IMG/VR virus record: IMGVR_UViG_3300042348_001285
DNA: 64,000 nucleotides
Source: a virus
Lineage: Duplodnaviria; Heunggongvirae; Uroviricota; Caudoviricetes
Direction: 5' to 3' (one strand)
Shown piece after piece: positions 5,864 through 22,054 of this stretch; position 1 is the first letter of the stretch, and each line of letters starts with the position of its first letter. The notes under the pieces were generated by a model. That model did not search any database and was not told where the DNA came from. It was given only the letters and a program-made list of their open reading frames with translations. The position numbers and the translations under genes were made by a program.

Positions 5864-5929
5864 TTTAGTGGGTGTCGTTGGATCGGGTGAGTATCACTGG
5901 GAACTAGAAGCGACGGGCAATCTGATTCT

Positions 5930-5966
5930 GTTCTATTGTAGGGAGTTTACCCCCGAAAGTCAATGG
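5930..5966 (-). promoter_or_regulatory. sigma70-type promoter TTGACT-N17-TACAAT
   Basis: Reverse complement reads 'TTGACTttcgggggtaaactcccTACAAT'. Confidence 0.5.
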
Positions 5967-6365
5967 GTGCCGTTGGGATTACCAGTCACCCTCCCGCGAA
6001 CAACGAACTAGGATCGAACCAGGGCCCGCGAGTTCTAACGCAGTAGTAATTGCGTGAGTTGAGTTGTGGGCCAGTATGTTGTGGGTTTGCGGTCCAATGG
6101 ATGAGTAGGTTGAGTTTGAAGTTATTTCGGTTATGACTCGATACGGGAGAAGTTTGAAGTTTGACATTTGTTGCTCGGGGTTTAATATCGGTGTTGCGCT
6201 TCGGGTGTTGCGCTTCGGGTGAGTTAGCCACCGGGTATCAACACAAAACTTAACATTCCGATGGCAGTTTGACGGCAATGAGTTAGCTACCAGATAGCAA
6301 CACAAAACTTAACATTCCGGTAGTAACCGGGTGCAATGAGTTTGATGACAATTAGTTAAAGTTCC

Positions 6366-6392
6366 AAACGACAAAACCCCCGTTTCCGGGGG
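6366..6392 (-). terminator. Rho-independent terminator
   Basis: Minus strand reads CCCCCGGAAACGGGGG followed by UUUUGUCGUUU, just after the stop of 6414..6629. Confidence 0.7.
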
Positions 6393-6413
6393 CGCTGTGG
6401 GAAGGTATGAGCC

Positions 6414-6629
6414 TCATCCAACCCGGCGAAGGTGGGGGGCGCTGTAGCCGTCACACCAATGCCCTTCAGGTGTGCGGCGGTAGCCCGTAATGCTCTTCGG
6501 ATTGACATAGCGGACGGGGCCCTGATGTCCGCCATCATTCTGCATACAACACCAGATGACAGCCTGTGCGGCGTCGTCGGTGACGTACTCCCAGGTACGG
6601 CCGGTAGCGTCGTCGGTAACGGTGGTCAC
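6414..6629 (-). CDS. small cassette ORF (71 aa) with a GTG start in the conserved start position
   Basis: The promoter cassette TGCTACAAT...CGGAACACACC is followed by GTG ACC ACC. Confidence 0.45.
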   Translation of the reverse strand: MTTVTDDATGRTWEYVTDDAAQAVIWCCMQNDGGHQGPVRYVNPKSITGYRRTPEGHWCDGYSAPHLRRVG

Positions 6630-7055
6630 GGTGTGTTCCGGTGCGGTACTTGCATATTGTAGCACCCTGAGGTGAGGACTGTGGCTCCTGGTACCTAGGC
6701 TCGGGAAATCGTTACGGTTCGTCACATTGCCGTGGATGTCGAAACCATGGGAAAAGCCCCGGAAACCGGGGCGGTAGTGGCGGACCCGGAAAGTTACCAG
6801 CGGGCGGCCCAGACCTTAAGCTCAGCCAGGTTGTAAGTGGCCATTGCGGTCCGGTGCGGATGACTCTGTAATTATAGCATGGTTGCCAGGGGTGCTGACG
6901 GGTCTGTGAACATTCGGTAAGTTTGCGCCTCGGGTGTGATGTTACAAAACTTAACACATCAAGGCAGGGAGTTTAACGGCAAGGAGTTTACCACGAGAGT
7001 AATACACTTGTACTAGCTCACCTAGTGGCATTACCCGGTGGCAATACCCAAACAG

Positions 7056-7079
7056 CAAAAAGCCCCGGCGAACCGGGGC
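7056..7079 (-). terminator. Rho-independent terminator (UUCG-loop hairpin plus U-run)
   Basis: Minus strand reads GCCCCGGTTCGCCGGGGC followed by UUUUU, just after the stop at 7092. Confidence 0.7.
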
Positions 7080-7091
7080 AGGGCCAGATAC

Positions 7092-7277
7092 TCAGCGGCG
7101 GTAGCAAAGTTCCCGGTGGAGTGCATTGGACTTTGCGACGCAGCCCCCAAGGCTCTCGGGGCGGATCCTGGCCTCGATGCCAAGACGACGGATGGCCCGG
7201 TGGATTTCAGGGTCCGTCATCAGGGTGGCCTCTTTCTGCCAAGCGGTGAGATCAGCGATGGTAGCGACGGCGGGCAT
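7092..7277 (-). CDS. small cassette ORF (61 aa)
   Basis: The cassette 'TATAATATGTAAGTACCGCACCGGAACGCACC' is followed by ATG. Confidence 0.5.
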   Translation of the reverse strand: MPAVATIADLTAWQKEATLMTDPEIHRAIRRLGIEARIRPESLGGCVAKSNALHRELCYRR

Positions 7278-7556
7278 GGTGCGTTCCGGTGCGGTACTTA
7301 CATATTATATGCCAGGGATGGATGGGTGTCAAGGCGCTGGGCGGTTTTGTTTGCGCCCTGTAACAATGCCGGTCGGTGAGTTTACGCTTCGGGTGTCGCG
7401 CTTCGGGTGAGTTGACTATCGGGTGCGATGTTACAAAACTTAACATTCCGATGCCAATGAGTTCGACCGCAATGAGTTAAGGGTCCAAGTAGCAAGAACC
7501 CGGATAGCAAAAAGCCCCGGCAAGGCCAGGGCAAGGCAGGCAATGGGCCGGAGCCC

Positions 7557-7808
7557 TTAGGTAAGTGCCTCGATAGACTCGATAGACTGGCTCAGCATTC
7601 CCCTCAGCAGACGCAGGGTCTCAAGGGTTTCAGGGGCAGGACGGAAGATAGCCTCGCCATCGGGCCGGTACACTTCCCTCAGGGACCCAATCAGGTTGGC
7701 CAGGGCGATTCCCTCGGTGACGGCCTTGTTCATAATCCGGTCTACCTCAGCGGCGACGGGTGTGGCGGCAGTGGTTGCCGTGAATGTGATGCCGGTTGCG
7801 GTTGCCAT
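7557..7808 (-). CDS. small cassette ORF (83 aa, begins MATAT)
   Basis: Cassette-derived Met at 7808. The ORF-track N-terminal extension is promoter read-through ('CATITESPT'). Confidence 0.5.
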   Translation of the reverse strand: MATATGITFTATTAATPVAAEVDRIMNKAVTEGIALANLIGSLREVYRPDGEAIFRPAPETLETLRLLRGMLSQSIESIEALT

Positions 7809-8194
7809 TGGTGCGGTGTCGGTTGGTGACTCTGTAATTGTAGCACAGGGCCAAGGGTGCTGTGGGTTTGCCGTTGGTTTGCCGTTGGTTTTGTTTACGT
7901 TCGGTAACAATGCCGTTGAGGGTTGGCCGCTAGGAGTAATACACTTGTACTAGCTTGCCCGGTGTTGCTCTCCGGTGTTGCTCTCCGGTGAGTTAACTAT
8001 CATGTGACAACACAAAACTTTACATATCAGGGCAGGGAGTTTGGCGGCAATGAGTTTACTGTCAGGTGGCGACACAAAACTTAACACACCATGGCAGGGA
8101 GTAATACACTTGTACTAGCTCACCCGGTGAGTTTACGCTTCGTGACGATAGGCATGGCAAGGGGGCCCGGCAGGCAAGACCCCCCTAGGCACCC

Positions 8195-8329
8195 TCAGGC
8201 CTCGCCAACGACTTTCCAGCCCTTGGGTTTCAGGCTAAGGGGACCAGTGTAGACGACTTGCTCAAGGAAACCATCGCGGTTGGTGCGCTCAAGCAGCCAC
8301 TGGCTGGAGGTGGTGGTTTTGGTGGCCAT
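8195..8329 (-). CDS. small cassette ORF (44 aa, MATKTTTSSQWLLER...)
   Basis: The cassette at 8335-8380 is followed by ATG GCC ACC. This ORF is below the track threshold. Confidence 0.4.
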   Translation of the reverse strand: MATKTTTSSQWLLERTNRDGFLEQVVYTGPLSLKPKGWKVVGEA

Positions 8330-8403
8330 TGCGGTTCGGTGGGTGACTCCCGGTTAGTGACTCTGAGATTATAGCACGGATAGGCAGGGGGGCGCAAGCC
8401 CCC

Positions 8404-8616
8404 TCAGGCAGGCATCGTGAAGTATGTATCCTCTTCGTCCCATCCTTGCTCGATAAGTTCTGCGATGCCCAGCTCCCCATCTTCCTTGGAAGGGTGCAGC
8501 CAATTCAGCTCCCAGCTCCCATCGTAGCCAACCCGGAAAGTGGCACAGACGGTACCGGGTAGGAGGTGGTAGGGGTGGCCCTCAGGGCAGTAGCAGATGG
8601 AAGGGATGGTTGCCAT
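8404..8616 (-). CDS. small cassette ORF (70 aa, begins MAT)
   Basis: Cassette at 8620-8660. Confidence 0.5.
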   Translation of the reverse strand: MATIPSICYCPEGHPYHLLPGTVCATFRVGYDGSWELNWLHPSKEDGELGIAELIEQGWDEEDTYFTMPA

Positions 8617-8700
8617 GGTGCGTTGCGGTGTCGGTTGGTGACTCTGTGATTATAGCAGGGATGGGCCAGGGAACACAAGCCCCCCCAATCCCCGTCACCC

Positions 8701-9153
8701 TCAGCCAGCAACCACAGCACCCTTGGCAACCTTACGGGGGGCACGCTTGCGGGCGGGGGCCGGTGCATCGGCGGTCACAGTGGCCTTGGTTGCCTTGGTT
8801 GCCTTGGTTGCCTTAGTCCGTTTCCGTGGTGCCGGGGCCGGTGCAGCAGCCAGCAGGGCGATAGGGCCACTTGCGGCCATCAGGACGGGAACCTCAGCGG
8901 GCACGACAATTTCCTGGAACTCAATAGCGATGCCATCGATGGCTTCAACCGTGGCCCTAGCCAGGGCAGCTAATTGGTCGTTGCGGGCATCGATTGCCTC
9001 GCGGGTTTGACAACCCAGATCATAGGCAGTGTCTGCCGTGATGGTGGCCACGGTGATGATGTAGGCGATCACAATGCCAGCAATGCGGGCAGCCTTCTCA
9101 AGGGTGGGGGCCCAATCGGCCTTCAGGATGGTTGCGATGGTGGTGGTGGCCAT
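8701..9153 (-). CDS. hypothetical protein (150 aa) with a KAT-tripeptide repeat and a basic C-terminus
   Basis: Begins MATTT. A 9-bp 'ggccttggt' DNA repeat run at 8775-8810 encodes KATKATKATKAT. Confidence 0.5.
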   Translation of the reverse strand: MATTTIATILKADWAPTLEKAARIAGIVIAYIITVATITADTAYDLGCQTREAIDARNDQLAALARATVEAIDGIAIEFQEIVVPAEVPVLMAASGPIALLAAAPAPAPRKRTKATKATKATKATVTADAPAPARKRAPRKVAKGAVVAG

Positions 9154-9200
9154 GGTGCGTTGCGGTGTCGGTTGGTTGACTCTGTAATTGTACCATACGG
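9154..9200 (-). promoter_or_regulatory. representative copy of the conserved promoter-leader cassette
   Basis: Reverse complement reads 'TGGTACAATTACAGAGTCAACCAACCGACACCGCAACGCACC ATG GCC ACC'. More than 50 near-identical copies lie between 6.3 and 31.4 kb. Confidence 0.7.
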
Positions 9201-9233
9201 CAGGCAGGGGGCGCAAGCCCCCCGTACCCGCAA

Positions 9234-9425
9234 TCACTCTGCGTCGTAACCGTCGAACCATGGGCCCCTTTGCCGTGTGCGGCGACGGGCGGTAGCACTG
9301 ATGGCGGTCTTGTAGGAAGTCTCAGGGCTTTTGCAGTGGGCTTGGGCCTCAGTCAGGGTTAGACCACGGGCAATGGTGCGATCGGGGCCGTTCATGAAGG
9401 AGCGAACGATCTTGTAGGTGGTCAT
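9234..9425 (-). CDS. small cassette ORF (63 aa)
   Basis: A TACAAT -10 box at about 9445 is followed by ATG. Confidence 0.45.
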   Translation of the reverse strand: MTTYKIVRSFMNGPDRTIARGLTLTEAQAHCKSPETSYKTAISATARRRTRQRGPWFDGYDAE

Positions 9426-9867
9426 GATGCGTTCCGGTTCGGGACCCCCATATTGTATGCCATGGGTGGCCAGGTGTCAAGGTGCCGGGTTGTTTGTTTG
9501 CATTTCGTAATAATGCTAGTGGGAGTAATACAAACGTACTAGCTTACCCGGTGAGTTTGCGCTTCGGGTGTCGCGGTCCGGTGAGTTTGCGCTTCGGGTG
9601 TCGCGGTCCGGTGAGTTTGCCGGTCGGTGAGTTTGCCGGTCGGTGAGTTAACTATCGGGTGCGATGTTACAAAACTTTACATACCGGGGCAGGGAGTTTA
9701 ACCGTAATGAGTTAGCCACCCGGTGACAACACAAAACTTAACATTCCGGTGGTAGCTTCACGGCAATGAGTTAGCCACTCGGTGTCAGCACACCATGGCA
9801 GGGGGCATGTGAAACCAGCATAAAGAAAGGCCGCCGATTGGCAGCCCTTTACTATGCGGACTTTCGT

Positions 9868-10257
9868 TCACAAAGGGTTGAGATTATCATCCACATCATC
9901 CATTCTTTCAAAGGAAGGGCAATGGAGCAGATTGCCGCTTTCCGCATACCCATCGATCACATATTGTGCGTACTGCTTAATCTTCTGCACAGCCACTTTG
10001 CTGTCTACTGTCTCCACGAACTCGCCCATGTTATAGTATGAAATCCGATCACCATTGTGGAAGTGATAAACCCTCTTTAGAATGAGGCGCATCCCGCTAA
10101 CAAAAAACTCCATATCGACTTGACATTCGTCCCCTACCCCAAAGAATACGGGAAATGTATACAAATCGTTAGGGGAGGGATTAGCCCAGGGGCTGGAATT
10201 TTCCCACTGAAGGGTAACTGAAGTCGTCCCACGAGAAATGATCGAGGAGGTGGGCAT
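9868..10257 (-). CDS. hypothetical protein (129 aa)
   Basis: Cassette at 10262-10295. Lower-GC gene body. Confidence 0.5.
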   Translation of the reverse strand: MPTSSIISRGTTSVTLQWENSSPWANPSPNDLYTFPVFFGVGDECQVDMEFFVSGMRLILKRVYHFHNGDRISYYNMGEFVETVDSKVAVQKIKQYAQYVIDGYAESGNLLHCPSFERMDDVDDNLNPL

Positions 10258-10562
10258 GGTGCGTTCCGGTTGACTCTGTAATTATAGCATGGGGCGGGAG
10301 CCTGCTGTGGGTTTCCGGGGGTTTTGTTTGCATTCCGTAATAATGCCGGGTCGGTGAGTTTGCGGTTCGGTGAGTTGACCATCGGGTGAGATGTTACAAA
10401 ACTTAACACACCGGGGCAGGGGGTTTGACCGTAATGAGTTAGCCACTCGGTGTCAACACAAAACTTAACACATCATGGCAGGGGGTTTGACCGTAATGAG
10501 TTAAACCCCCAAACAGCAAGCCCCAGCAAAGCCAGGGCAGTAGCAACAACCTGATGCAACCC

Positions 10563-10766
10563 TCAACCTCGCGCAGCCCGAGAAAAGTCCAACTCAGGGT
10601 AAACCACCAACTCCCTAGGCAGGCTGCGGGCACGACGGGCCCATGCGTACTCATCGGAATACATCGCCTCGATGCGGGCATTATCACAGGCAACGGCAGC
10701 GGTGATACGTTCACGGGCGGCAGCACGACGGTCGGAGGCGATCTGGGTGCGGTAGGTGGTGGCCAT
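10563..10766 (-). CDS. small cassette ORF (67 aa, begins MATT)
   Basis: Cassette at 10775-10800. Confidence 0.5.
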   Translation of the reverse strand: MATTYRTQIASDRRAAARERITAAVACDNARIEAMYSDEYAWARRARSLPRELVVYPELDFSRAARG

Positions 10767-10954
10767 CGGGGCGTTTCGCTTGGGACCCCCTAATTATAGC
10801 ATGGTGGGGCCTGCTGTGGGTTACTAATGGTTTTGTTTGCGTTTTGTGACAGTGCCGTGGGCAATGAGTTTGCTATCGGGTGAGTTGTAACAAAACTTTA
10901 CACACCAGGGCAATGAGTTTGACGGCAATGAGTTAAACCCCGGACAGCAAACAG

Positions 10955-10977
10955 CAAAAAACCCCAGCGAACCGGGG
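10955..10977 (-). terminator. Rho-independent terminator
   Basis: Minus strand reads CCCCGGTTCGCTGGGG followed by UUUUUU. Confidence 0.65.
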
Positions 10978-10998
10978 CGAGATGGAAAGGTCGCGGTA

Positions 10999-11307
10999 TC
11001 ATGCGCAGCGGTAGAGCCAGCCAGTCGTCGGCTGAACCGGGCTAGGATCGGCCAAAATTGAAGCCAGCCATGCCCGAACACCTTTAGCGGGGGCTTTCCA
11101 GCTATCGGCTTTCAAGATGGCCCCGTCTGTCAGGCGTATAAAGCAGTAGACCGAACGCTGCGACTCGCAGGGAACACCACTGTGGATAGGCGCCATTGAT
11201 ACCTTGGCATTGCTGCGGCCCATTTGGTAGGCGTAGGCGTAGGCGCCAGCGCTCTTACTGGTCAAAATGGCGATAAAGGCATCGATCTGGGATGTGGTGG
11301 TGGCCAT
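10999..11307 (-). CDS. hypothetical protein (102 aa) of the WKAPAKG(V/I)R family, paralogous to 30961..31365
   Basis: Begins MATTT. 'FIRLTDGAILKADSWKAPAKGVRAWL' compares with 'FVDRVTGDVYKVANWKAPAKGIRYNL' in the paralogue. Confidence 0.5.
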   Translation of the reverse strand: MATTTSQIDAFIAILTSKSAGAYAYAYQMGRSNAKVSMAPIHSGVPCESQRSVYCFIRLTDGAILKADSWKAPAKGVRAWLASILADPSPVQPTTGWLYRCA

Positions 11308-11384
11308 CGGGGCGTCTCGGGTGGGGACTCTGTAATTGTACCATGGATGGGCTAGGGAACGCAAGCCCCCTAACCCCGTGGCGG

Positions 11385-11546
11385 TCAGGCGACTCTAACG
11401 TGGAGGCCCCGAGCGATCTCTTTAAGTTCGGATTCAGTGCGGAAGATCAGCATGAGCCAGAATTCTCCGGTGACTTCAAGATTGTTGGCCCTGATGACGT
11501 TCATGATGTCGTGGCGGAGGGCTTGCTTGCGTTGGGTGGCGGTCAT
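11385..11546 (-). CDS. small cassette ORF (53 aa)
   Basis: Cassette-derived start MTATQRK. Confidence 0.4.
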   Translation of the reverse strand: MTATQRKQALRHDIMNVIRANNLEVTGEFWLMLIFRTESELKEIARGLHVRVA

Positions 11547-11596
11547 GGGTGGCTCCCGGTTGGTTGACTCTGTAATTATAGCACGGGGCCGTAGAG

Positions 11597-11830
11597 TCAG
11601 CAATAAGCGTTTAGAGATCCGTATGGATTGGACGAAAGATCGAAAAAACCCTCCCAGCTTTCTGCTTCAGCGCGTGCCATTGGCATCAATGGAGAGGGTG
11701 ACTGAGAAGTGCCCCACTGGTGGCGATCATTTGCTCTAGCGAGGTGATGGTGGTGCTTAATCCTGGAGCGTGTTTCACTCCAGTAGCAAGCGGTTCCATG
11801 AAAGTAGCCGTAGCCGGTTGCATTGGTCAT
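11597..11830 (-). CDS. small cassette ORF (77 aa) with a HHHH run
   Basis: Cassette at 11845-11880. Confidence 0.45.
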   Translation of the reverse strand: MTNATGYGYFHGTACYWSETRSRIKHHHHLARANDRHQWGTSQSPSPLMPMARAEAESWEGFFDLSSNPYGSLNAYC

Positions 11831-11971
11831 GGCGGGGCGGGTGGTGGTGGTTGGTGACAGGTGAATTGTAGCATGGGTGCCGGGGCAAAGTCAGCCCCCC
11901 TGGATTCTGCGGTAAGCACGGGGGCCCGAACGGCATCCGCCGAACAGCAACCCCCCCCCCGTTCATACCCC

Positions 11972-12259
11972 TTAAAGCCCCGCAACCCTAGCAAGCTCCT
12001 GCATGGTGCAGGGGGAAGAACCCATCAGGGGCAAGATAGCAACCTCAAAATCCGAATGCAGATTCTGCCAGCGGATAGCAGCAGCGGCGGCATCTTCGAT
12101 GGACCAGCCTTCTACGGGGCCACCCTGCAGGAACCAGCGGCGCTGATGGGCGGTGGGGGTCTCAGGCTTGACGCGAGCCCACAGGCGGTAGGTTGTTGCT
12201 GGGGCGGGGGGTTGCATCGGGGCGGGGGGTTGCATCGGGGCGGCGGTTGCAGTAGCCAT
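11972..12259 (-). CDS. small cassette ORF (95 aa, begins MATATAAPMQPPAPMQPPAP)
   Basis: The cassette and a tandem 15-bp repeat encode the duplicated PMQPPA. Confidence 0.5.
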   Translation of the reverse strand: MATATAAPMQPPAPMQPPAPATTYRLWARVKPETPTAHQRRWFLQGGPVEGWSIEDAAAAAIRWQNLHSDFEVAILPLMGSSPCTMQELARVAGL

Positions 12260-12336
12260 CGTTGCGGTGTCGGTTGGTTGACTTCGGTATTATAGCACAG
12301 GGGGCCAGAGAACACAATCCCTAACCCCCCCGGTCA

Positions 12337-12546
12337 TCAGGCGGCAGCCAGGGCCAGCCAGTCGGCGGGTAGACACGTCGGATAGGGGCAGCGGCTGGTC
12401 CAGCGGACTTCTGCCCGCAGCTCGCCGCAGTCTTCCCACATGTCAACTACTTGCCCCCGCAGGCGGTTCCAGTGGAGGACGCGACCGGCGGTGTCTTCGC
12501 CGTTGTTGGCGGGGCGGACGGTGGCTCCAATGGTGATGGTGGTCAT
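12337..12546 (-). CDS. small cassette ORF (69 aa)
   Basis: Cassette at 12560-12595. Confidence 0.45.
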   Translation of the reverse strand: MTTITIGATVRPANNGEDTAGRVLHWNRLRGQVVDMWEDCGELRAEVRWTSRCPYPTCLPADWLALAAA

Positions 12547-12887
12547 CGCTGGTTGGGGGGGGGGGTGCGTTACCCTGAAATTATAGCACAGGGCCGAGGG
12601 TGCTGGGGTTGCCGGGTGTGCCGTTGGTTTTGTTTACGTTTGGTAACAATGCCGTTGGGAGTAATGCACTTGTACTAGCTTGCCTGTGGTTTGTTTGCGC
12701 TCCGGGTGCGATGTTACAAAACTTAACATTCCGATGGCAGGAAGTTTGACGGCAAGGAGTAATACACTTGTACTAGCTTGCCCGGTAAGTCTACGCTTCG
12801 TGACGGCAGGCAAGGGGCCAACATAGTGTCAACCCCATGGCATTGTCAACCCCATGGCATTGTCAACCCCTGGGCATCGTCAACCCC

Positions 12888-13127
12888 TCAAGCAGCAGCC
12901 AAGGCATCCAGGGCGGTAGCCAGGGCAGTAGCAGGGAAATAGCGGTCCTCACCTTCGCAGATGTCAGACAGGCACCAGCGGAAGCCGTTACGGGTCGCAT
13001 CAGCGGTCAGGATGTAGTCGGCACCTTTGAAGAAGGCACGGGATCCTTCACTGAATTCCACACCGGCAGGGAGGCCTTTGCGGAGAGCAGCGTTAATCAT
13101 GGTGGATGGGGTGGTTGCCGGGCCCAT
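12888..13127 (-). CDS. small cassette ORF (79 aa)
   Basis: Cassette at 13135-13170. Confidence 0.45.
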   Translation of the reverse strand: MGPATTPSTMINAALRKGLPAGVEFSEGSRAFFKGADYILTADATRNGFRWCLSDICEGEDRYFPATALATALDALAAA

Positions 13128-13398
13128 GTTGTCGTTTGGTGCGTTACCTAGTAATTATAGCATGGGGTCGAGGGTACTGTGGGTTGCCGGTGGGTGTCGA
13201 TGGTTTTGTTTACGTTTGGTAACAATGCCGGTCAATGAGTTTGCAGTTCGGTGAGTTAACTAACGGGTGCGATGTTACAAAACTTTACATATCGGGGCAG
13301 GGAGTTTGGCGGCAATGAGTTTACTGCCAGGTGGCGACACAAAACTTAACACATTGAGGCAGGGAGTTTGACGACAAAGAGTTATCGCACCGGCCAAC

Positions 13399-13422
13399 AA
13401 AAAAAACCCCGGCGAACCGGGG
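13399..13422 (-). terminator. Rho-independent terminator (UUCG loop plus U8)
   Basis: Minus strand reads CCCCGGTTCGCCGGGG followed by UUUUUUUU. Confidence 0.75.
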
Positions 13423-13449
13423 CAGGGGCAGGGCAGTATTGGGTGGGTG

Positions 13450-13662
13450 TCAGCCTACGCCTTGTCCCCAGACGGTTAAGCAGCGGTCTCGGGCGACCCG
13501 GTAGGATTCAAGCTCCCTGCGGTTAAGATCCAACATGGGGCGATAACCGTTGATACCGGCTGCACATGCCGCTTTCCAAGCAGCCTCAGCACGGTCAATA
13601 GCACATTGGGCGATATTAGCCCAAGAATCGGCGGAGATGGTTGCGGTGGTGGTGGGAGCCAT
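13450..13662 (-). CDS. small cassette ORF (70 aa, begins MAPTTTAT)
   Basis: Cassette at 13670-13700. Confidence 0.5.
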   Translation of the reverse strand: MAPTTTATISADSWANIAQCAIDRAEAAWKAACAAGINGYRPMLDLNRRELESYRVARDRCLTVWGQGVG

Positions 13663-14281
13663 TTGCCGTTTGGTGCGGTACCCTGTAATTATAGCATGGT
13701 GCAGGGGCAATTGCGGGGTGCCGTTTGATGGCGTTTGGTAACAATGCCGTTCGAGTAGTAGGTTTGTACTAGCGGACTTCGGCGGCAATTTTCGGTTCGA
13801 ACTATCGGGTGTGATGTTACAAAACTTAACATTCCGATGGCAGTTTGACGGCAATGAGTTTACCACAGGAGTAATACAAACGTACTAGCTGACTCCGGCG
13901 GCAATTTGCGGTTGAGAGTGGTACTAACGTACTACCTAACCCGGTGTCAAAATGGGGGCCACGAGGATCGGACTCGTCTTCTATTTGTTATGAGCAAATT
14001 GCATTCACCAGATTGCTAGACCCCCGTGAGTATTACATTACCCTGGCAAGTAAGTTCCGGTCACTATTCCTAGCAGCCATGGCAACCAGCACAGGCAAGC
14101 AAGCCCCTGTAGGCATGGTGCGTCCCAACCGTGCAATGAGTTTGGGGTCCTCACCAGGGAGAACGACCGGTTTCCATGGGCCCGGTGGAAAGGTGGTTTC
14201 GGTGGTCATAAGCCTGGGGGGTGACAGGTTGATTATAGCATAGGGGCCAACACAGTGTCAACCCCTCGGCAACCCCGACCA

Positions 14282-14540
14282 TCAATAACCCAGCCAAACC
14301 AGGGCCTGACCAGCATGGTTAGGGTTGACTTCAGGGTGGGAATCAGCCTTAAGGTCCGCAACATTTGCCTCATGCTGCCGTAGAAGCCGCCCAAGCTCGC
14401 GGTCAGTCAGGATCAGAGACTCGCTGCGGTCCCAAGCTGCGGCCAGAACGCTAGCGGCATAATTGTCGGGATCTTGACCCAGTGCATAATCAAAGCAGTC
14501 GGCCCACTGCTCGTCGGTGAAGGCAACCTGCTCGGCGCTG
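14282..14540 (-). CDS. cassette ORF whose conserved ATG position is lost; start uncertain
   Basis: The cassette 'TGCTACAATTACAGAGTCACTACCTGGACCGCCACC' is present, but I find no in-frame ATG before the body (...HIISAEQVAFTDEQW...). This is either a non-canonical start or a decayed gene. Confidence 0.25.
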
Positions 14541-14689
14541 ATGATGTGGCTGGTAGCGGTGACAGCGGTTGCCGTGGGTGGCGGTCCAGGTAGTGACTCT
14601 GTAATTGTAGCACACGGGGGTAGGGTGCCGTGGGTTCTGTTACGCTTCGTGATGATGGGCACGGCAAGGGGCCAACACAGTGTCAACCA

Positions 14690-14869
14690 TCACCCGATGC
14701 CTTCCCGATCGTATTCCCCGTAAGTCGATTCATATACGGCACGGTCATCGTAGAATTCAGCCTCAGCATTAGGATCGCCGTCAGCCAGTGCTTGGAGGAA
14801 TTTTAGGGTATCTTCGTCAGTGGGGGTAGCGGCGAAGGCGGCGGTAATGGTTGCTGATGTGGGGGCCAT
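14690..14869 (-). CDS. small cassette ORF (59 aa, MAPTSATITAAF...)
   Basis: A TACAAT box at about 14895 is followed by ATG GCC CCC. The ORF is below the track threshold. Confidence 0.4.
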   Translation of the reverse strand: MAPTSATITAAFAATPTDEDTLKFLQALADGDPNAEAEFYDDRAVYESTYGEYDREGIG

Positions 14870-15065
14870 TTTTTCTCCGGGGTGTCCGTCTATTGTAGCA
14901 TAGTGCTGGGGGGGGGGTTGGGGTTTGCGGGTCGGTGTTGTGCTTCGGGTGTTAGGCTTCGGTGAGGTTGCCGGTCGGTGAGTTTGCAGTCCGGTAAGTT
15001 GACTATCGGGTGCGATGTTACAAAACTTAACATTTCATTGGCATCGAGTTTGTGGTATGAGTTAC

Positions 15066-15372
15066 TTAAATGTAATTATAGGGTGCTTTTTGCGAGTAAT
15101 GTAGAATTCCGGGGTGTGTTTTCGGAGTAATGTAGAACGCCCCAAAATAAAAACCCAAAATTCAATCCTTGAGATCGATTGCAGGGGAACGGAGTTACTC
15201 CTAAAAAAATTAAAAATTTTAGGACCTTTTCAAAAACAGCATGAAAAATTCTATATTTGAATGCAAATTCTGCACCCTACTACTATAATCGCATATAAAT
15301 TATTTAATAGAAGACTCTTATCAATGAGTTATGATACATAAGAGTTCCTTATCAATAGGTAATAGCAGTAAA
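15066..15372. repeat. complex intergenic module, copy A (iterons, hairpins, AT-rich tail with IHF-like site)
   Basis: Carries 2x 'GGGTGCTTTTTGCGAGTAATGTAGAA'-type iterons, the hairpin TCCTAAAA-N10-TTTTAGGA, and TTGAAT...TATAAT. Related to the copies at 17.1, 19.9, 21.5, 22.2, 25.2, 25.7 and 29.4 kb. Confidence 0.8.
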
Positions 15373-15430
15373 GCAACAAAAAAAAGGGAGGGTTACCCCT
15401 ACCCATTCTTTGCGCTAAGTTTATCGCCAA

Positions 15431-15781
15431 TCAATCATTCTTGGCACCCCATGCACGCAACCGGCTAATCGCCTCCTCTATGCTGCTGGCATTAGACTTA
15501 CGGAATTTGGCCGTTTTGCTATAGGAGAACATTTCGATCTTCCCACCCCCGACGGAAAACATTGCGTAGCGGGAATTGTGGAAAATTCCGTTAATCCATT
15601 CTTCCTTGGGGTCTAGGGATACCTTGACGATTAGGGAAGCGTTTTGCTCACCGCCAAGTGTGGACCTTTGCACAGAAGAAACCGGGAAGGTGGCATTAAG
15701 GGCAGCAGCCAGGGTCTCACGGTCGGCTTCGGTCGGGATGAAGGCGGTTGCAAGGGTTGCGGTAGTTGCCGGGGCCATCAT
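15431..15781 (-). CDS. hypothetical protein (116 aa, begins MMAPATTAT)
   Basis: Cassette at 15790-15820. Confidence 0.5.
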   Translation of the reverse strand: MMAPATTATLATAFIPTEADRETLAAALNATFPVSSVQRSTLGGEQNASLIVKVSLDPKEEWINGIFHNSRYAMFSVGGGKIEMFSYSKTAKFRKSNASSIEEAISRLRAWGAKND

Positions 15782-15940
15782 TGCCGGTGGTTGGTTGGCT
15801 TCGTAATTATAGCACAGGGCCGAGGGTACTGTGGGTGATGTTACAAGGAGTGACAACAGGCACGGCAGGGTGCCGTCACGGCCTGCAACAACAGGCAAGG
15901 CAGGGGCTACCGGCAGGCAACCCCCCCCCCTGGCCATCAC

Positions 15941-16237
15941 TCACACAGCCGGAACCTGGCAGCCGGCAGCGATCACCCCTTTGCCTTCCATCTCATCCAG
16001 CAGGGTGACGTAAGCGGCAGCGATGGCGTTCTTGGTGGCACGGCCGGTTAGCTCAACCCGGAAACTCCGGCAGCTGAAGGGTAGGCATGTGAACGTGCTG
16101 TAGCCGGTGCTGGTCTCTACAGTGCCCTCACTGGCAGTGACCCTGGCAGGGCGGCCATTGGGTTTGTAGTAGGAGACTTGGAAAACCTTGCCGGGCTGGT
16201 CAAGGCTGTTCACGTAGAAGGAATTGGGGGTTGCCAT
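15941..16237 (-). CDS. hypothetical protein (98 aa, begins MATPNS)
   Basis: Cassette at 16245-16285. Confidence 0.5.
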   Translation of the reverse strand: MATPNSFYVNSLDQPGKVFQVSYYKPNGRPARVTASEGTVETSTGYSTFTCLPFSCRSFRVELTGRATKNAIAAAYVTLLDEMEGKGVIAAGCQVPAV

Positions 16238-16326
16238 TGCGGTTCGGGGTGGTTGCCGTTGGTTGGTTGCTCTGTGATTATAGAATGGAATGGAAGGGGG
16301 CGCAAGCCCCCCTCAACTCCTAGCAA

Positions 16327-16578
16327 TCACACAGCAGGCAGGTAAATTTCCAATGTGTAGGTAACCTCAGCCTCATTATAGGCAGCCAGCGTATCGGCTA
16401 GTTCCCCAAGCGTCACATAGTCGCTGTAGTCTCCATCGTCAATCAGGAATTCCATCTCATCGCCTTCGGCGGGTTCTTCCGATAGGTAGGGGGCACAGAA
16501 GGGGGCCAGTCCGGTGGGCATGGCGACGGGCAATGCAGCGAGGATTTCAGCTAGGGTAGGGGCGGTTGCGGTAGCCAT
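16327..16578 (-). CDS. small acidic cassette ORF (83 aa, begins MATATAPT)
   Basis: Cassette at 16585-16620. Confidence 0.5.
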   Translation of the reverse strand: MATATAPTLAEILAALPVAMPTGLAPFCAPYLSEEPAEGDEMEFLIDDGDYSDYVTLGELADTLAAYNEAEVTYTLEIYLPAV

Positions 16579-16771
16579 GGTGGTCTCGGTGGGTGACGAC
16601 AGGTAAATTGTAGCACACGGGGTCCTGGAACGCAAGGCCCCCCCTACTATTAGTTGCCAACTTTCGGTAGTATAGTCCCATACGTCAAATAGCCATACCT
16701 TTCGATGCCGTACTTGTGCAAAATATGCACACTGGACCATGGTACACCTTGTCCCCAAGTACCTGACTGAC

Positions 16772-16888
16772 TCATACGCTCAAAAGCACATTCAACGCTG
16801 TTACGCAGCCAGGAATGATCAATACGGGATGCTGATGCCGCTTGGTTGCTGCGGTAGTTGCGGTACTTGGGGGGGTGGGGAATGCCAT
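16772..16888 (-). CDS. tiny cassette ORF (38 aa, MAFPTPPSTATTAATKRHQHPVLIIPG...)
   Basis: Cassette at 16895-16925. The remainder of track ORF 16772..17197 is read-through. Confidence 0.3.
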   Translation of the reverse strand: MAFPTPPSTATTAATKRHQHPVLIIPGCVTALNVLLSV

Positions 16889-17027
16889 TGTTGCCGGTGG
16901 TTGGTTGGCTCCGTAATTATAGCACATTGCCTCGGGGGTTGGGGCCCCGGATTGCTGACTCCCAAGGTGTGGTGGACAGTTTGTAAACTGTCTATTTGAC
17001 TTCGTGAGTTTGACTTTTAGGGTTTGA

Positions 17028-17318
17028 TTCTGGGGTGTGTTTTCGGGGTCAATGTGGAATCTCAGAGTGCTTTTTGCAGGTAATGCAGAAACCCCAATTT
17101 GAAAAGTTCGAAAGTCAACCGCTGAGATCGACTGCAGGGGAACGGAGTTACTCCTAAAAAAATTAAAAATTTTAGGACCTACTGAAAAACCATCCAAAAA
17201 ATTCTACATTTGAATGCAAATTCTGCACCCTACTATCATATACTCGCGTAAAAATTATTTAATAGAAGACTCTTATCTAAATGTCTAGACAGATAAGTAA
17301 TTCTTATCAATCTAATCC
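17028..17318. repeat. complex intergenic module, copy B
   Basis: Same iteron, hairpin and AT-rich architecture as copy A. Confidence 0.8.
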
Positions 17319-17449
17319 CCCATCAAACCGCAATGTTGTGGGCTATTCGAGGATGCTAACCGGAGTCTCACACCAAATAGCAAAGGGGGCGATGCCGTAG
17401 CACCAACCCCCAAACATTAAACTAAGGTCAATCTAAGGCCAAACCAAGG

Positions 17450-17638
17450 TCAAACATAGAGACGAACCTGAGCCAGGAAGCACTCCCGGTGTTGCTTGCG
17501 AAGGATGGTGCGGATTCGCTTAGCCTGCTCAAGACTCCATACCCGGTTGCCCCCTACGGGCTCAGACCATGGTTTGCGGGTGATTTCCTGAACAGTGTAG
17601 AAGATTCGGGTTTTCTTGGTTGCGGTTGCGGTGGCCAT
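17450..17638 (-). CDS. small basic cassette ORF (62 aa, begins MATATATKK)
   Basis: Cassette at 17645-17690. Confidence 0.5.
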   Translation of the reverse strand: MATATATKKTRIFYTVQEITRKPWSEPVGGNRVWSLEQAKRIRTILRKQHRECFLAQVRLYV

Positions 17639-17809
17639 TGGTGCGTGTCGGTTGGTTGGTGACAAGTGAATTGTAGCACGGTCGCCGGGGGCTGTCAATG
17701 CTTTTGGGGTAGGGACCCGGCTTCCAAATTTTCGGAGGGGGCGCAAGCCCCTTGCCATCTGGTCATCATTCCCTAGGTATCAATGCCCTTGCAGTAGGAT
17801 CCAGTTCTC

Positions 17810-17880
17810 AAAATTTTCGGAGGGGGCGTTAGCCCCCGACTGGTTCGGGCGCCGTAGGCGGTAACCCGAACCCAATCCCA
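17810..17880. repeat. 71-bp GC-rich structured element, copy 1 (second copy at 39816..39885)
   Basis: Near-identical 'AATTTTCGGAGGGGGCGTTAGCCCCCGACTGGTTCGGGCGCCGTAGGCGGTAACCCGAACCCAATCCCA'. It holds hairpin GGGGGC-GTTA-GCCCCC and a perfect 8-bp stem GGTTCGGG/CCCGAACC that encloses CGCC-GTAG-GCGG. Confidence 0.75.
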
Positions 17881-17930
17881 GGGCATCAATCCCAGGGCAT
17901 CAATCCCAGGGCATCAATCCCATGGGCAAA
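17876..17930. repeat. microsatellite (gggcatcaatccca)x4 directly after the structured element
   Basis: Direct tandem reading. Confidence 0.85.
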
Positions 17931-18012
17931 GTTGCCAGTGGCTGATAACAATGGTAGTATAACAAAAAAGGCCAGGAAGCACAAGCCCCCTGACCATGGT
18001 AGCTAATCCCTA

Positions 18013-18315
18013 TCAGGAACACTGATTTAATGGGGTAGGATCAAAGTGAATATCCCGCTCGATGCGTAGTCCAGCTGGGCCCCGAGTAGCTTCTAGGTCC
18101 CTGAGGTCGAAGTACCCAAGTTCCCGCTCCAGACCGATAACCAACCCAAAGCATAACCCTGTCGCAGGATCCATCTCCGTGAGATACCATGTCCAGTTTG
18201 ACCAGGGGGTGAAAAATTTGGTATAGGCGATTGCTGCCATACCTTTACCGTCCTGTGCGTACAGGGCAGGAACCTTGGTGGCGATTGCCTTGGTTAGTAG
18301 CTTGGTGTTGGCCAT
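18013..18315 (-). CDS. hypothetical protein (100 aa, begins MANT)
   Basis: Cassette at 18320-18360. Confidence 0.5.
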   Translation of the reverse strand: MANTKLLTKAIATKVPALYAQDGKGMAAIAYTKFFTPWSNWTWYLTEMDPATGLCFGLVIGLERELGYFDLRDLEATRGPAGLRIERDIHFDPTPLNQCS

Positions 18316-18695
18316 GGTTGCCGGTGGGTGACGACAGGGTAATCATAGCACAGGCAGGAAGGGGGGGCGCAAGCCCCTTGCCCCCCGGTTTTGTCCCTCA
18401 GTCTGGAATTGATTGGCCGTAGCGGAGGGGTTCGGCTTCTTTCATTACCTAATAGCTGCATGAATGTTTAATAGCCCCATGGTAAACCACGCTCACATTC
18501 TCATATATTCTTTGTTGAAAACAAAGACTTGGCATCATTCATGCAGGTTTTCGGCTCTTACTTCACCTCATTTAACTCTCGCTGAGACAATGCGAGTAGC
18601 CCCGTTGACTTTGCGGTTTGGGTGGTGGTGGTGGGTGACTTCGGTAGTATAGCACTAATGGGAAGGGAACGCAAGCCCCCCCGACATGCCAATAA

Positions 18696-18869
18696 TCACT
18701 TGCTATCGGTCACTTCCCAAGCAGTGATTTCTTGGTCTACCAAGTTGCCTTGACCGGGATGCGGAAAGAAGTTGTAGTCCATATCGCACAGGGCATCTTC
18801 CATGTTCACACCCTCTTTAAGGTCAAAGGTGACCTTCACAGTGACGGTGGCGGTGACTTTGCGGCTCAT
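18696..18869 (-). CDS. small cassette ORF (57 aa) behind two tandem cassettes
   Basis: Two promoter cassettes at 18895-18910 and 18945-18970 have no ORF between them. The Met sits at 18869. Confidence 0.4.
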   Translation of the reverse strand: MSRKVTATVTVKVTFDLKEGVNMEDALCDMDYNFFPHPGQGNLVDQEITAWEVTDSK

Positions 18870-18999
18870 GGCGGTTCGGTGGTTGGTGACAGGGTAATCA
18901 TAGCACGGGCAGGCAGGGGGGCAAGCCCCCTCAACCGCCCGACAAGTTGACTTCGGTATTATAGCACAGGTAGGCAGGCAGGTAGGCAGGCAGGCAGGG

Positions 19000-19248
19000 T
19001 CACTCCTCCCACAGTGGGCCAGCCGACATTGCGCCAACGGGGTCACCTAAGTTTTCTGCGCTAACCGGGACGGCGGCAACATCATAGCTGGGGTGGATTT
19101 CGCCGGCTGCATTACATACCCAGCAATCGACCGTCCAAAAGCGGCCCGTGTAAATCGGGTTATAGCAATCATACTCTGGACGGTTTTCATCGTGCGGAGC
19201 ATCAGCCTGATAGATCAAGCGAGCGGAAACGGTTTTAGCGTCAGCCAT
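19000..19248 (-). CDS. small Cys/Trp-containing cassette ORF (82 aa, begins MADAKT)
   Basis: A variant cassette with a TAATAAT -10 box and a C-run leader lies at 19250-19290. Confidence 0.45.
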   Translation of the reverse strand: MADAKTVSARLIYQADAPHDENRPEYDCYNPIYTGRFWTVDCWVCNAAGEIHPSYDVAAVPVSAENLGDPVGAMSAGPLWEE

Positions 19249-19291
19249 GGTTGGGGGGGGGTGGCGGTTGGTTGGTGTTGTCGAGTAATTA

Positions 19292-19582
19292 TTAGCGTTT
19301 GGCAAGTTTGCCAGTGGCCAGCATTCCATCACCTTGGCCGCGACAATTAAAAACACGACCATCAGGCAAGCGCACAACAAAGGAATACATCCTTGTTGCG
19401 TAAGGGCCGGTACGCCATGATCCAGTTACGGCACCAGTCCCTATTTGATTACCATGCCAATCCGTAAAGGTCCAATGAGAAGTCTGGAAGAAACCTTTTA
19501 CGTTTGACCCATTGGCTGGACGCTTGGCGTAACAAGCAATGCTGTCATTAGCCTTACAATTGGTTTCAACTAAAGTGACCAT
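19292..19582 (-). CDS. hypothetical protein (96 aa)
   Basis: Cassette at 19630-19660. Confidence 0.45.
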   Translation of the reverse strand: MVTLVETNCKANDSIACYAKRPANGSNVKGFFQTSHWTFTDWHGNQIGTGAVTGSWRTGPYATRMYSFVVRLPDGRVFNCRGQGDGMLATGKLAKR

Positions 19583-19744
19583 TGCATAATCCGGCTATCT
19601 GCCGGTGGGAGGAGGGGGCCGGGTTTGTCCCGATGGGTGAATTATAGCACATTGTCGGTGGTGCTGGGGGTCCAGGATTGTTGACTCCTGGGGTGTGGTG
19701 GACAGTTTGTAAACTGTCTATTTGCGTTGGGAGTTATGACTCTG

Positions 19745-20060
19745 GGGTTGGGTGCCGAGGGTGCATTTTGTGAGTAATGTGGAACCTTAGGGTGCGTTTT
19801 CAGGGCAATGTGGAAACTCTGAAATCAAAAACCGAAAATTCAATCCCTGAGATCCGTTGCAGGGCAACGGAGTTACTCCTAAAATTTTTGAATTTTTTAG
19901 GACCTAGTGAAAAATGAGTAAGAAAATTCTACATTTGAATGCATATTCTGCACCCTACTATCATATACTCGCGTAAAAATTATTTATAGTACACTCTTAT
20001 CTAAATATCTAAACAGATAAGAAATTCTTATCCATAAGCACAATCAATGAGTTAAGAACC
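19745..20060. repeat. complex intergenic module, copy C
   Basis: Iterons 'GGGTGCATTTTGTGAGTAATGTGGAA' and 'GGGTGCGTTTTCAGGGCAATGTGGAA'. Also the hairpins, a palindrome CTTATCT-N12-AGATAAG, and 'TTATCCATA', which is DnaA-box-like. Confidence 0.8.
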
Positions 20061-20065
20061 AGGAG

Positions 20066-20093
20066 ACAAAAAAAGGGGGGGCAACCCCCCCCC
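20066..20093 (-). terminator. Rho-independent terminator G7-CAA-C9 plus U7
   Basis: Minus strand reads GGGGGGGGGUUGCCCCCCC followed by UUUUUUU, just after the stop at 20099. Confidence 0.8.
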
Positions 20094-20098
20094 GACCA

Positions 20099-20530
20099 TC
20101 ACAGCTCCTGAACTTCAACCCCGATGCGATCTGCTGCAGCAAGCAGAAGTTCCCGGTAGGAGTCGAACTTGTTGGGAGTTGGCACCCAGAACCTCAAGAC
20201 ACCTGGATCACTAGGAATACCACTGGACCACCCCTGGTAATCGGGAGTTGGGATACCGTCGCTTACTACAACGATTCCATCAGTTGGGTTGTAAGAAATA
20301 TTCGTCTTCACCATTCGGCCAGCAATATAATCGCCACGCAATTCGATAAAGCCATCATTGGCATAAGTAGGGTAATTGTGAACTTGGTCCAGGATTGTAA
20401 GCTCATTGAGACCACGAACAGCCTGAAGGAAACCCATACCAGTTTCAGTGCCACATGCTTCATAAGCAATTAGCAGGTATGTTGCAGCGAGTTTGGCAGT
20501 TTGTGACGGGTCGGATACTTGGAATTTCAT
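20099..20530 (-). CDS. hypothetical protein (143 aa)
   Basis: Intact ORF. Confidence 0.5.
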   Translation of the reverse strand: MKFQVSDPSQTAKLAATYLLIAYEACGTETGMGFLQAVRGLNELTILDQVHNYPTYANDGFIELRGDYIAGRMVKTNISYNPTDGIVVVSDGIPTPDYQGWSSGIPSDPGVLRFWVPTPNKFDSYRELLLAAADRIGVEVQEL

Positions 20531-20591
20531 GGAGTTTGAGAGTGTGTGGTTACAGAGTAGATGGGCCCAGATCGCAACCCCTGACTAACAA

Positions 20592-20789
20592 TCAAGTAGC
20601 CGCCAACGCAGCTTCAGCCTCGACAATACGGGCAGCTTTGTTGTGTGCCATTTCAGCCTGGAGTGCCTTAAGGAGGTCCGTAGATGCTTTCAAGTCCTCA
20701 GCACCGATGACTCCTTGATTGTAAAGGTCGATAGCACCCCCTGCGGCGAAGTGGGAGCGATAGGCTCGTTGGTAACGTGTTTGGGCCAT
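20592..20789 (-). CDS. small helical cassette ORF (65 aa, begins MAQTRYQRAYR)
   Basis: Cassette at 20795-20840. Confidence 0.45.
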   Translation of the reverse strand: MAQTRYQRAYRSHFAAGGAIDLYNQGVIGAEDLKASTDLLKALQAEMAHNKAARIVEAEAALAAT

Positions 20790-20915
20790 TTTGCTGTGGG
20801 GCGGTTGCCCTCGGTTGGTTGTTTGGTGATGGGTGAATTGTAGCATGGTGCCACTGGTTCCGTCAACCCCCTGGATTCTGCGGCAGGAAGGGGACCCGGC
20901 AGGCAAGGACTCCCC

Positions 20916-22050: not shown

Positions 22051-22054
22051 CAGG

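Follow-up and report, generated by a model that had tools for sequence, protein, structure and literature searches.

Setting and anatomy of the repeat arrays

The intergenic spacers in part of a 64,000-nucleotide stretch of phage DNA (the window; IMG/VR record IMGVR_UViG_3300042348_001285, Caudoviricetes) contain arrays of short direct repeats, in which an earlier note on the same sequence had distinguished four units, (i) to (iv), and which are considered here as candidate regulatory elements of early promoters. Between about 6.6 and 30.2 kb the genes are without exception on the minus strand, and the G+C content of this gene field is 52-57%, as opposed to 41-48% beyond 32 kb. Encoded in the window are a cysteinyl-tRNA synthetase (CysRS), a DnaN-type sliding clamp, a thymidylate kinase and a pentapeptide-repeat protein. 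The phage DnaN is most similar to DnaN of Synechococcus phage S-H1 and of Nodularia phages, and the best cellular matches to the phage CysRS are cyanobacterial, at 44-49% identity; these affinities suggest a cyanobacterial host for what is probably a large uncultured freshwater cyanophage. Cultured phages yielded no DNA-level near-identity match to positions 6000-14000, and no T4-type genes or markers were seen among the open reading frames (ORFs) of the window.

The minus-strand field is served by extended -10 promoters (Table 1), while on the plus strand TGCTAYAAT yields only weaker look-alikes. Spacers without an array are 50-160 bp long and consist of a hairpin plus a promoter. In these spacers the loop of the upstream hairpin GGGGGCTTGCGCCCCC contains the -35-like TTGCGY, and stem-loop and promoter overlap, in a compact layout resembling that of the conserved early promoter plus stem-loop (PeSL) cassettes which flank small variable ORFs in T4-type phages (PMC2839356, PMC4122927). 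Examples of TTGCGY in the loop are found at 8376-8403, 9195-9225, 11343-11375, 16285-16315, 18350-18380 and similar places.

Arrays occupy about 13 of the approximately 45 promoter-bearing intergenic spacers, rather than the intervals between most first-half genes, as the earlier note had it. Read along transcription, an array begins after the intrinsic terminator of the upstream gene and ends before the next promoter; eight minus-strand intrinsic terminators were called at array starts. The order of elements is terminator, optional unit (iii), one to three modules of approximately 60 bp, a run of AACTCACCG units, again an optional unit (iii), a proximal element, and the promoter. Each module is composed of two 15-bp AACTCA units, which together correspond to unit (ii), followed by unit (i), and the AACTCACCG run, with its units of 15-16 bp, includes unit (iv). 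The conserved proximal element, ATTGTTACC-AAACG-TAAACAAAAC, is accompanied by a AAACAAAAC tract and resembles HLR1, the binding site of the cyanobacterial regulator RpaB, as discussed below. The -35 position downstream of the array is taken by either CCCACAG or TTGACA, and is followed by TGCTATAAT. Where modules are repeated, the copy nearest to the promoter carries the full unit (i), while the distal copies carry a variant with only one half. Four arrays had been missed previously: those at 10830-10940, 13725-13950 and 14930-15060, and the plus-strand instance at 27770-27880.

Table 1. Promoters, repeat arrays and promoter-proximal elements in the window (HLR1 and LexA-like designations are motif-based predictions)
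Feature	Position	Strand	Elements	Promoter	Upstream terminator
Extended -10 promoter field	6656-30205	-	about 47 copies, one per small ORF; context of the arrays	TGCTAYAAT, TGCTATAAT	
Array 1	6180-6345	-	two half-HLR1 units (cores 6240-6256, 6299-6315); 15-bp GGTGTTGCGCTTCGG / GAGTT repeats	no TGCTATAAT promoter recognised downstream	6376-6393
Array 2	6905-7020	-	HLR1 6941-6958; unit (ii) 6963-6988; LexA-like box 7001-7014	-10 at 6871-6879	7062-7079
Array 3	7340-7480	-	proximal HLR1-like element 7350-7367; unit (iv) 7375-7400; HLR1 7430-7447	TTGACA-17-TATAAT (7332-7304)	7514-7532
Array 4	7876-8160	-	proximal HLR1-like element 7894-7911; LexA-like boxes 7938-7951, 8103-8116; half-HLR1 units 8009-8026, 8071-8087; unit (ii) 8031-8056	-10 at 7837-7845	
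Array 5	9490-9800	-	proximal HLR1-like element 9497-9514; LexA-like box 9527-9540; two units (iv) 9550-9605; 15-bp GGTGAGTTTGCCGGTC repeats; perfect HLR1 9666-9683; half unit 9728-9744	TTGACA-17-TACAAT (9480-9452)	9826-9849
Array 6	10320-10510	-	proximal HLR1-like element 10327-10344; HLR1 10393-10410; half unit 10455-10471; unit (ii) 10415-10440, 10477-10502	-10 at 10281-10289	10520-10538
Array 7	10830-10940	-	HLR1 10887-10904; unit (ii) 10909-10934	-10 at 10793-10801	10961-10978
Array 8	12615-12800	-	proximal HLR1-like element 12633-12650 (about -60 to -77); LexA-like boxes 12663-12676, 12761-12774; HLR1 12713-12730	-10 at 12580-12588	
Array 9	13190-13390	-	proximal HLR1-like element 13209-13226; perfect HLR1 13274-13291; half unit 13336-13352; unit (ii) 13296-13321, 13358-13383	-10 at 13154-13162	13406-13423
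Array 10	13725-13950	-	LexA-like boxes 13757-13770, 13873-13886, 13920-13933 (the last a perfect match to RGTACNNNDGTWCB); HLR1 13816-13833	-10 at 13688-13696	
Array 11	14930-15060	-	15-bp GAGTT-type repeats; HLR1 15017-15034	-10 at 14892-14900	
Array 12	21200-21380	-	GAGTT repeats; HLR1 21287-21304; half unit 21346-21362	-10 at 21146-21154	
Plus-strand array (sole instance)	27770-27925	+	two units (i) (27776-27793, about 27809-27825); GAGTTTG repeats	TTGACA-17-TATAAT (27898-27925)	
Proximal TGTTAC-N5-GTAACA / HLR1-like elements	22929-22946, 14640-14657, 15840-15857, 26668-26685	-	first element centred about 50 bp upstream	promoters without a -35 box	

Enrichment and orientation of the units

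All four units were recovered where they had been reported, far above chance expectation, and each of the intervals listed previously contains them: unit (i), GTTACAAAACTTAACAY, gave 20 matches with up to three mismatches (0.37 expected), and units (ii), (iii) and (iv) gave nine, seven and three matches, respectively, with none expected in each case. Units (ii) and (iv) are variants of a single family with a period of 15-16 bp, built on the common core (C)GGTGAGTT / CAATGAGTT / CAGGGAGTT and describable as phased CGGTGAGTT-type repeats. No known motif was found to fit this GAGTT-phased family.

A similar density of units inside coding regions would have pointed to compositional bias, as the earlier note had pointed out, and positions 5900-21500, in which 53% of bases are non-coding by rough gene calls, were examined in this respect. 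The units proved to be non-coding: all 18 copies of the unit (i) core ACAAAACTT and all seven copies of unit (iii) lie outside genes, and plus-strand GAGTT is found 58 times in non-coding versus four times in coding sequence, while its complement AACTC occurs three and six times, respectively. The units always have one orientation relative to transcription. The sole plus-strand array keeps this orientation with respect to its own consensus promoter, indicating that position and orientation are tied to promoters and not to the genome strand.

Similarity of unit (i) and the proximal elements to the RpaB site

Written on the plus strand, unit (i) reads GTTACAAA-AC-TT(A/T)ACAT(T/A). RpaB, an OmpR-family redox and light regulator of cyanobacteria, binds HLR1, (G/T)TTACA(T/A)(T/A)-N2-(G/T)TTACA(T/A)(T/A), which consists of two imperfect 8-nt direct repeats; HLR1 motifs have already been reported in cyanophage genomes (PMC6525291). 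The HLR1 consensus KTTACAWWNNKTTACAWW gave 15 matches with up to two mismatches, versus 2.4 expected, 14 of them on one strand; functional HLR1 sites are known on either strand. Two matches, at 9666 and 13274, are perfect. By our own arithmetic a perfect match should have a probability of about 1.5e-8 per position, and a chance match to HLR1 by one of a few repeat families is therefore unlikely. The HLR1 of Synechocystis hliB/scpB is TTACAATAGTTAACAT (PMC6331805), from which the phage unit TTACAAAACTTAACAT differs at three central positions, including the 2-nt spacer. With zero to two mismatches, the motif suggests that unit (i) is an HLR1-type RpaB site. In comparison with the known HLR1/RpaB sites of hliB/scpB, the photosystem I genes and psrR1, the predicted phage sites have the same two 8-nt direct repeats with a 2-nt gap, but there are many copies per genome, arranged in tandem modules of approximately 60 bp interleaved with other repeats, and most are located 85 to 290 bp upstream.

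The promoter-proximal element, TTTACGTT-TG-GTAACAAT, fits HLR1 with two mismatches, and a related element, GTTACAAGGGGTAACAAC, precedes the promoters without a -35 box at 14604, 15806, 22893 and 26635. RpaB activates from sites centred between -66 and -45, with a peak near -51, and represses from sites between -38 and +23 (PMC6525291). Relative to the predicted starts, the centres of the elements fall at about -48 to -52 where the promoter has no -35 box (four cases) and at about -59 to -72 at array-bearing promoters, so that the proximal elements would sit in or near the RpaB activator window.

The earlier note had drawn attention to inverted arms in unit (i) as a sign of a dimeric regulator. 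The palindrome TGTTAC-N5-GTAACA does fit, with 22 matches in unit (i) and the proximal elements against 2.2 expected, and the direct-repeat site of a response regulator reads as well or better.

Several other readings were discarded. A scan for the NtcA-type site TGTA-N8-TACA found none in the arrays, and readings of unit (i) or the 15-bp units as CRP, Pho box, CIRCE, SufR, L-box or IHF sites or as extracytoplasmic-function (ECF) sigma factor promoters, compared by eye with consensus sequences, appeared to give at most one half-site or the wrong spacing. An antisense promoter with unit (i) as its -35 box and unit (iii) as its -10 box fits only at 8081-8110, the spacing being wrong elsewhere.

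Similarity of unit (iii) to the LexA box

On the sense strand, unit (iii) is GCT-AGTAC-AAGT-GTATT-ACTC, with the palindrome AGTAC-N4-GTAYT. The cyanobacterial LexA box is AGTACWNWTGTACT, with the Nostoc consensus RGTACNNNDGTWCB, and GGTACAAATGTATT is the form of box predicted upstream of lexA in marine Synechococcus and Prochlorococcus (PMC3091678). The sequence AGTACNNNNGTAYT has six exact matches versus 0.12 expected; ten array copies are within one mismatch of the box, and one matches RGTACNNNDGTWCB perfectly. The spacer takes several forms across the window and related contigs (aagt, gttt, gtta, aaac, agga, aaga, tttt) with the half-sites preserved, and some copies in relatives have a fully symmetric GTACT, a pattern that would fit a selected site for a dimeric protein.

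Cyanobacterial LexA boxes thus share the 14-bp palindrome and half-sites with the phage unit, and its GTATT variant is that of the predicted marine boxes. In the phage, however, there are one to three boxes per array, at either end of it and away from the core promoter, and they form part of a longer conserved unit, GCTAGTAC-N4-GTATTACTC. Given the number of motifs compared, the LexA match taken alone is moderate evidence; together with the HLR1 match, it would form a coherent picture of host operators.

Comparison with related contigs

Close relatives with 75-93% nucleotide identity are present in IMG/VR as contigs of 279 kb and 127 kb, and lake metagenomes supply about a dozen related contigs. 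Across 13 related contigs, identity was 0.89 at HLR1 units, 0.91 at GAGTT, 0.83 at LexA-like boxes and 0.82 at the proximal element, compared with 0.76 at other array positions and 0.90 in coding sequence. These values suggest that the motif cores are under constraint.

The number and order of units vary among relatives. In one orthologous pair, the stretch of approximately 145 bp between unit (i) and the start codon is almost identical, while the composition of the distal array is different. Contig L168 lacks window positions 6988-7448, including array 3 and its whole cassette, with the junction inside arrays, and contig L198 lacks positions 9167-9417, with the junction at the repeats of the promoter and 5′ untranslated region (UTR). 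Arrays thus grow and shrink by unequal recombination and provide homology for the gain and loss of cassettes; the breakpoint evidence consists of these two examples and not of a systematic survey. Two contigs of more distant phages, L236 and L237, whose thymidylate kinases have 84-85% amino-acid identity to that of the phage, lack the cassette and array region next to tmk, so that the comparison reaches no further than relatives with about 75-93% nucleotide identity.

Interpretation of the arrays

Any reading of the arrays has to accommodate their observed anatomy, enrichment and promoter linkage, the motif matches, the conservation among relatives, the turnover in copy number and the cassette indels. 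The one we favour, with moderate confidence, is that they may be cis-acting upstream regulatory arrays of sigma-70-type early promoters which recruit host regulators within a region of gene cassettes concerned with host takeover. The units would be protein-binding sites: host RpaB would bind unit (i) and the proximal elements, helping RNA polymerase at the extended -10 promoters, host LexA would bind unit (iii), and a third factor would bind the GAGTT-phased units. Arrays could then govern how strong some of the early promoters are, coupled to the light/redox and DNA-damage state of the host, and could insulate each cassette from its neighbour. For the distal units, cooperative action, an increase in local regulator concentration, insulation behind terminators, or titration of the regulator may be envisaged, and some of them may be partly decayed duplicates.

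The operator arrays proposed in the earlier note are upheld in so far as the units are non-coding, locked in orientation to promoters and better conserved than their surroundings, and in so far as two types match known operators; the best-matching regulators, however, are host RpaB and LexA rather than phage early proteins, and the protein at 580-882, named previously as a ribbon-helix-helix (RHH) protein, gave no Pfam match. The other suggestion, that of UP-element-type enhancers, finds no support in the case of the repeat units. An UP element is an A+T-rich sequence at about -40 to -60 that is contacted by the alpha subunit of RNA polymerase, while the units are rich in G+C and are found 77 to 300 bp upstream of predicted starts; this description suits only the separate A-tract AAACAAAAC (about -50 to -60), which could be UP-like.

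A number of observations weigh against a role for RpaB and LexA. The distal HLR1 units, centred 85 to 290 bp upstream, are outside both the activation and the repression windows of RpaB, and their distances from the promoter change in steps of approximately 15 bp, with loss of helical phasing, so that they cannot all touch polymerase from one face of the helix. Distal module copies retain only one good HLR1 half-site, the second repeat. The spacer AAAAC is invariant among copies of unit (i), and part of their similarity is due to common descent and not to selection. The palindromic reading fits unit (i) equally, and a different dimeric protein is a possible binder. LexA-like boxes are positioned at -76 to -286 from the predicted starts, with none overlapping a -10 or -35 box, and classical repression is therefore not expected; the position expected of a repressor site is a loose guide, as the predicted host boxes themselves are found at -16 to -172 from start codons (PMC3091678). 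GAGTT, the most conserved unit, matches no nameable motif, and approximately 30 neighbouring promoters have no array at all. It should also be considered that the starts are predictions, placed 7 nt beyond the -10 box, that the conservation figures derive from BLAST alignments of repetitive DNA, which may favour repeat cores and inflate their identity, and that the host is itself deduced from gene affinities. Finally, the proposed links to RpaB and to LexA are both drawn from similarity of motifs.

Among the alternatives, it is possible, if unlikely, that the arrays are by-products of recombination, with modules duplicated by unequal crossing-over or cassette shuffling, as with PeSL, and with at most the promoter-proximal copy being regulatory. 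Shuffling mediated by PeSL is documented (PMC2839356, PMC4122927), and the differences in unit number and order between close relatives, the deletion junctions of L168 and L198 in repeats, the distal units as degenerate copies of the proximal one, and the unphased promoter distances would all be expected. Less easily explained in this way are the motif cores, whose conservation equals that of coding sequence whereas other array positions have drifted (0.89-0.91 vs 0.76), and the LexA-like palindrome, which keeps its half-sites while its spacer changes; neutral duplicates are also not expected to match the consensus sequences of two host operators.

We also consider it rather improbable that the binders are early regulators encoded by the phage, which would shut off or boost early promoters, the likeness to host operators being coincidence or mimicry. 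The units are non-coding, orientation-locked and conserved, as binding sites are, the GAGTT-phased family has no known host counterpart, and the palindrome TGTTAC-N5-GTAACA would suit a dimeric phage repressor equally well. The protein search covered 64 kb of a genome that could be approximately 280 kb, the size of a relative. In the 92 ORFs of the window (55 and then 37) no clear DNA-binding Pfam domain was found, only a weak match of one ORF to a TacA-like RHH antitoxin and a receiver-like cREC domain, and in particular none of the 55 early ORFs has a significant one. The sites are upstream of promoters, not over them, a poor geometry for shut-off, and two independent unit types match two different host operators.

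With a still lower probability, the sites could be decoys, by which RpaB and LexA are titrated on the replicating genome, with de-repression of high-light and SOS genes and lowering of photosystem I. About 20 HLR1-type and 10 LexA-type sites are present in 16 kb, most of them at positions that make little sense for direct promoter control, and their number is variable. A pure sponge, however, requires no strict link in position and orientation to promoters such as is observed, the plus-strand case included, and distal units match more weakly. We give similarly little credence to the combined possibility that the arrays are sponges as well as promoter elements, draining RpaB and LexA through multiplying operators. 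If this were true, infection would impose a high-light- and SOS-like state (hli, psbA, recA and ssb up, photosystem I down) with no need for an auxiliary metabolic gene or an anti-regulator protein.

It is highly improbable that the arrays are transcribed and act as RNA, in the form of structured UTR elements or small RNAs, or that they are tandem weak promoters. TGTTAAGTT does resemble an extended -10 box, TGnTAAGTT keeps the key -10 positions, and one plus-strand promoter-like site, TTAACA-18-TACACT, is built from units. However, the folding energy of an array is no better than that of shuffled sequence on either strand (z -0.27 and +0.08), Rfam gave no match with E up to 1 in 5500-30500, on the sense strand the arrays sit behind strong intrinsic terminators, and no covariation was seen among unit copies by inspection. 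Least probable of all is that the repeats are origin iterons or serve partition or packaging: tandem short direct repeats are typical of iterons, but here they are spread over at least 13 separate intergenic regions in 22 kb, each paired with a promoter. They are neither gathered in one cluster nor placed beside an initiator gene, and the arrays hold no AT-rich unwinding element.

Comparison with known systems

In the literature searched, we found no description of repeated HLR1- or LexA-type arrays at early promoters. The likeness to PeSL cassettes extends to the small ORFs, each with its own conserved early promoter and a preceding stem-loop, and to the breakpoints of cassette gain and loss, which fall in repeats. 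While PeSL is a single compact promoter plus hairpin, the phage adds operator-like arrays of 100-300 bp, and no T4-type markers were seen in the window.

OmpR sites at ompF and ompC and Pho boxes are contiguous tandem sites with a period of 10-11 bp, ending next to the -35 box. As in these OmpR/PhoB-family arrays, the phage has several head-to-tail predicted response-regulator sites stacked upstream of a weak or absent -35 box, but its HLR1 units are approximately 60 bp apart, with other repeats between them. Cyanophages are also known to co-opt the sites of host factors, in the form of single NtcA sites, or Pho boxes before pstS and phoA, in front of auxiliary metabolic genes. The arrays would make the same use of the operator of a host global regulator to tie phage expression to host physiology, although they are repeated, and precede many early ORFs of unknown function.

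The dependence of cyanophage infection on light is well known, while we know of no account of how early phage transcription senses the light or redox state of the host. If the recruitment of host regulators by the arrays is real, it would constitute a direct wiring between host photosynthetic redox and DNA-damage signalling and the phage host-takeover genes, and the modules of approximately 60 bp, with their natural variation in copy number, would offer a compact system for studying the tuning of promoters by arrays and the titration of regulators. If the motif matches are fortuitous, the arrays would still be part of unusually elaborate promoter/terminator cassettes that drive gene shuffling in large phages.

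Other repeats and neighbouring features

Downstream of array 1, the minus strand of 5980-6180 has no recognisable TGCTATAAT promoter or ORF start, and contains GGTTCGATCC, which by eye resembles a tRNA T-arm, while ARAGORN and Rfam report no RNA there. Beside array 10, ARAGORN calls a tRNA-Met (CAT) at 13953-14025 on the minus strand, where Rfam, with E up to 1, reports no tRNA; its T-loop appears by eye to be TCCGATC, which would be unusual, and this may be a degenerate tRNA or a tRNA-like element. The plus-strand promoter at 27898 is followed by approximately 110 nt without an obvious ORF, up to a terminator region near 28010-28035, and the interval 27898-28040 is a candidate for a small RNA antisense to general transcription.

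Other repeats are present in the same field. An A+T-rich family of approximately 300 nt has eight copies (15040-15400, 16990-17330, 19720-20060, 21430-21700, 22060-22400, 25030-25280, 25500-25840 and 29220-29540), with a nearly invariant core TTGCAGGGGAACGGAGTTACTCCTAAAAAAATTAAAAATTTTAGGACCT ... TTCTACATTTGAATGCAAATTCTGCACCCTACTA after two GGGTGCNTTTT-N5-GTAATGTRGAA repeats, and is found in relatives too; it could be a plus-strand promoter region, a mobile element or another regulatory module. At 12820-12890 an 18-bp unit, which reads GGGGTTGACAATGCCATG on the sense strand, is repeated four times in tandem, with TTGACA in every copy; copies are also seen near 14245-14265 and 14670-14689, and the promoter at 14232 has its -35 box supplied by single copies. 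A 64-bp unit is repeated three times in tandem at 21815-22061, with 90-100% identity, and has a diverged copy at 25419-25537. Trivial matches to the HLR1 consensus in A+T-rich lake metagenome contigs (L203, L232, L190, L178 and others) are due to a 10-bp satellite, (TTGTGTAAAG)n, and these contigs were set aside as unrelated to the phage.

The early 5′ UTRs of the minus strand (6600-30200) are 22-35 nt long, CA-rich and without a Shine-Dalgarno sequence, and they share the consensus TACAGAGTCACCAACCGACACCGCAACG ahead of the ATG, which suggests a common translation-initiation signal independent of Shine-Dalgarno. Among the window ORFs there is an RNA-repair-like gene set, comprising a cREC receiver domain, a poly(A)-polymerase/CCA-adding head domain, an AAA_33 kinase and a metallophosphoesterase, as well as CysRS, an HNH endonuclease, a DnaJ-domain protein and an SPFH protein. 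CysRS with 58-59% identity to the phage enzyme, well above other cellular matches, is encoded on a 148-kb contig assigned to Microcoleus sp. Aus8_D2 (L147) and on a 57-kb contig of a ‘Mesorhizobium’ metagenome-assembled genome (L088); both contigs may stem from related phages or prophages and have been placed in bacterial bins.

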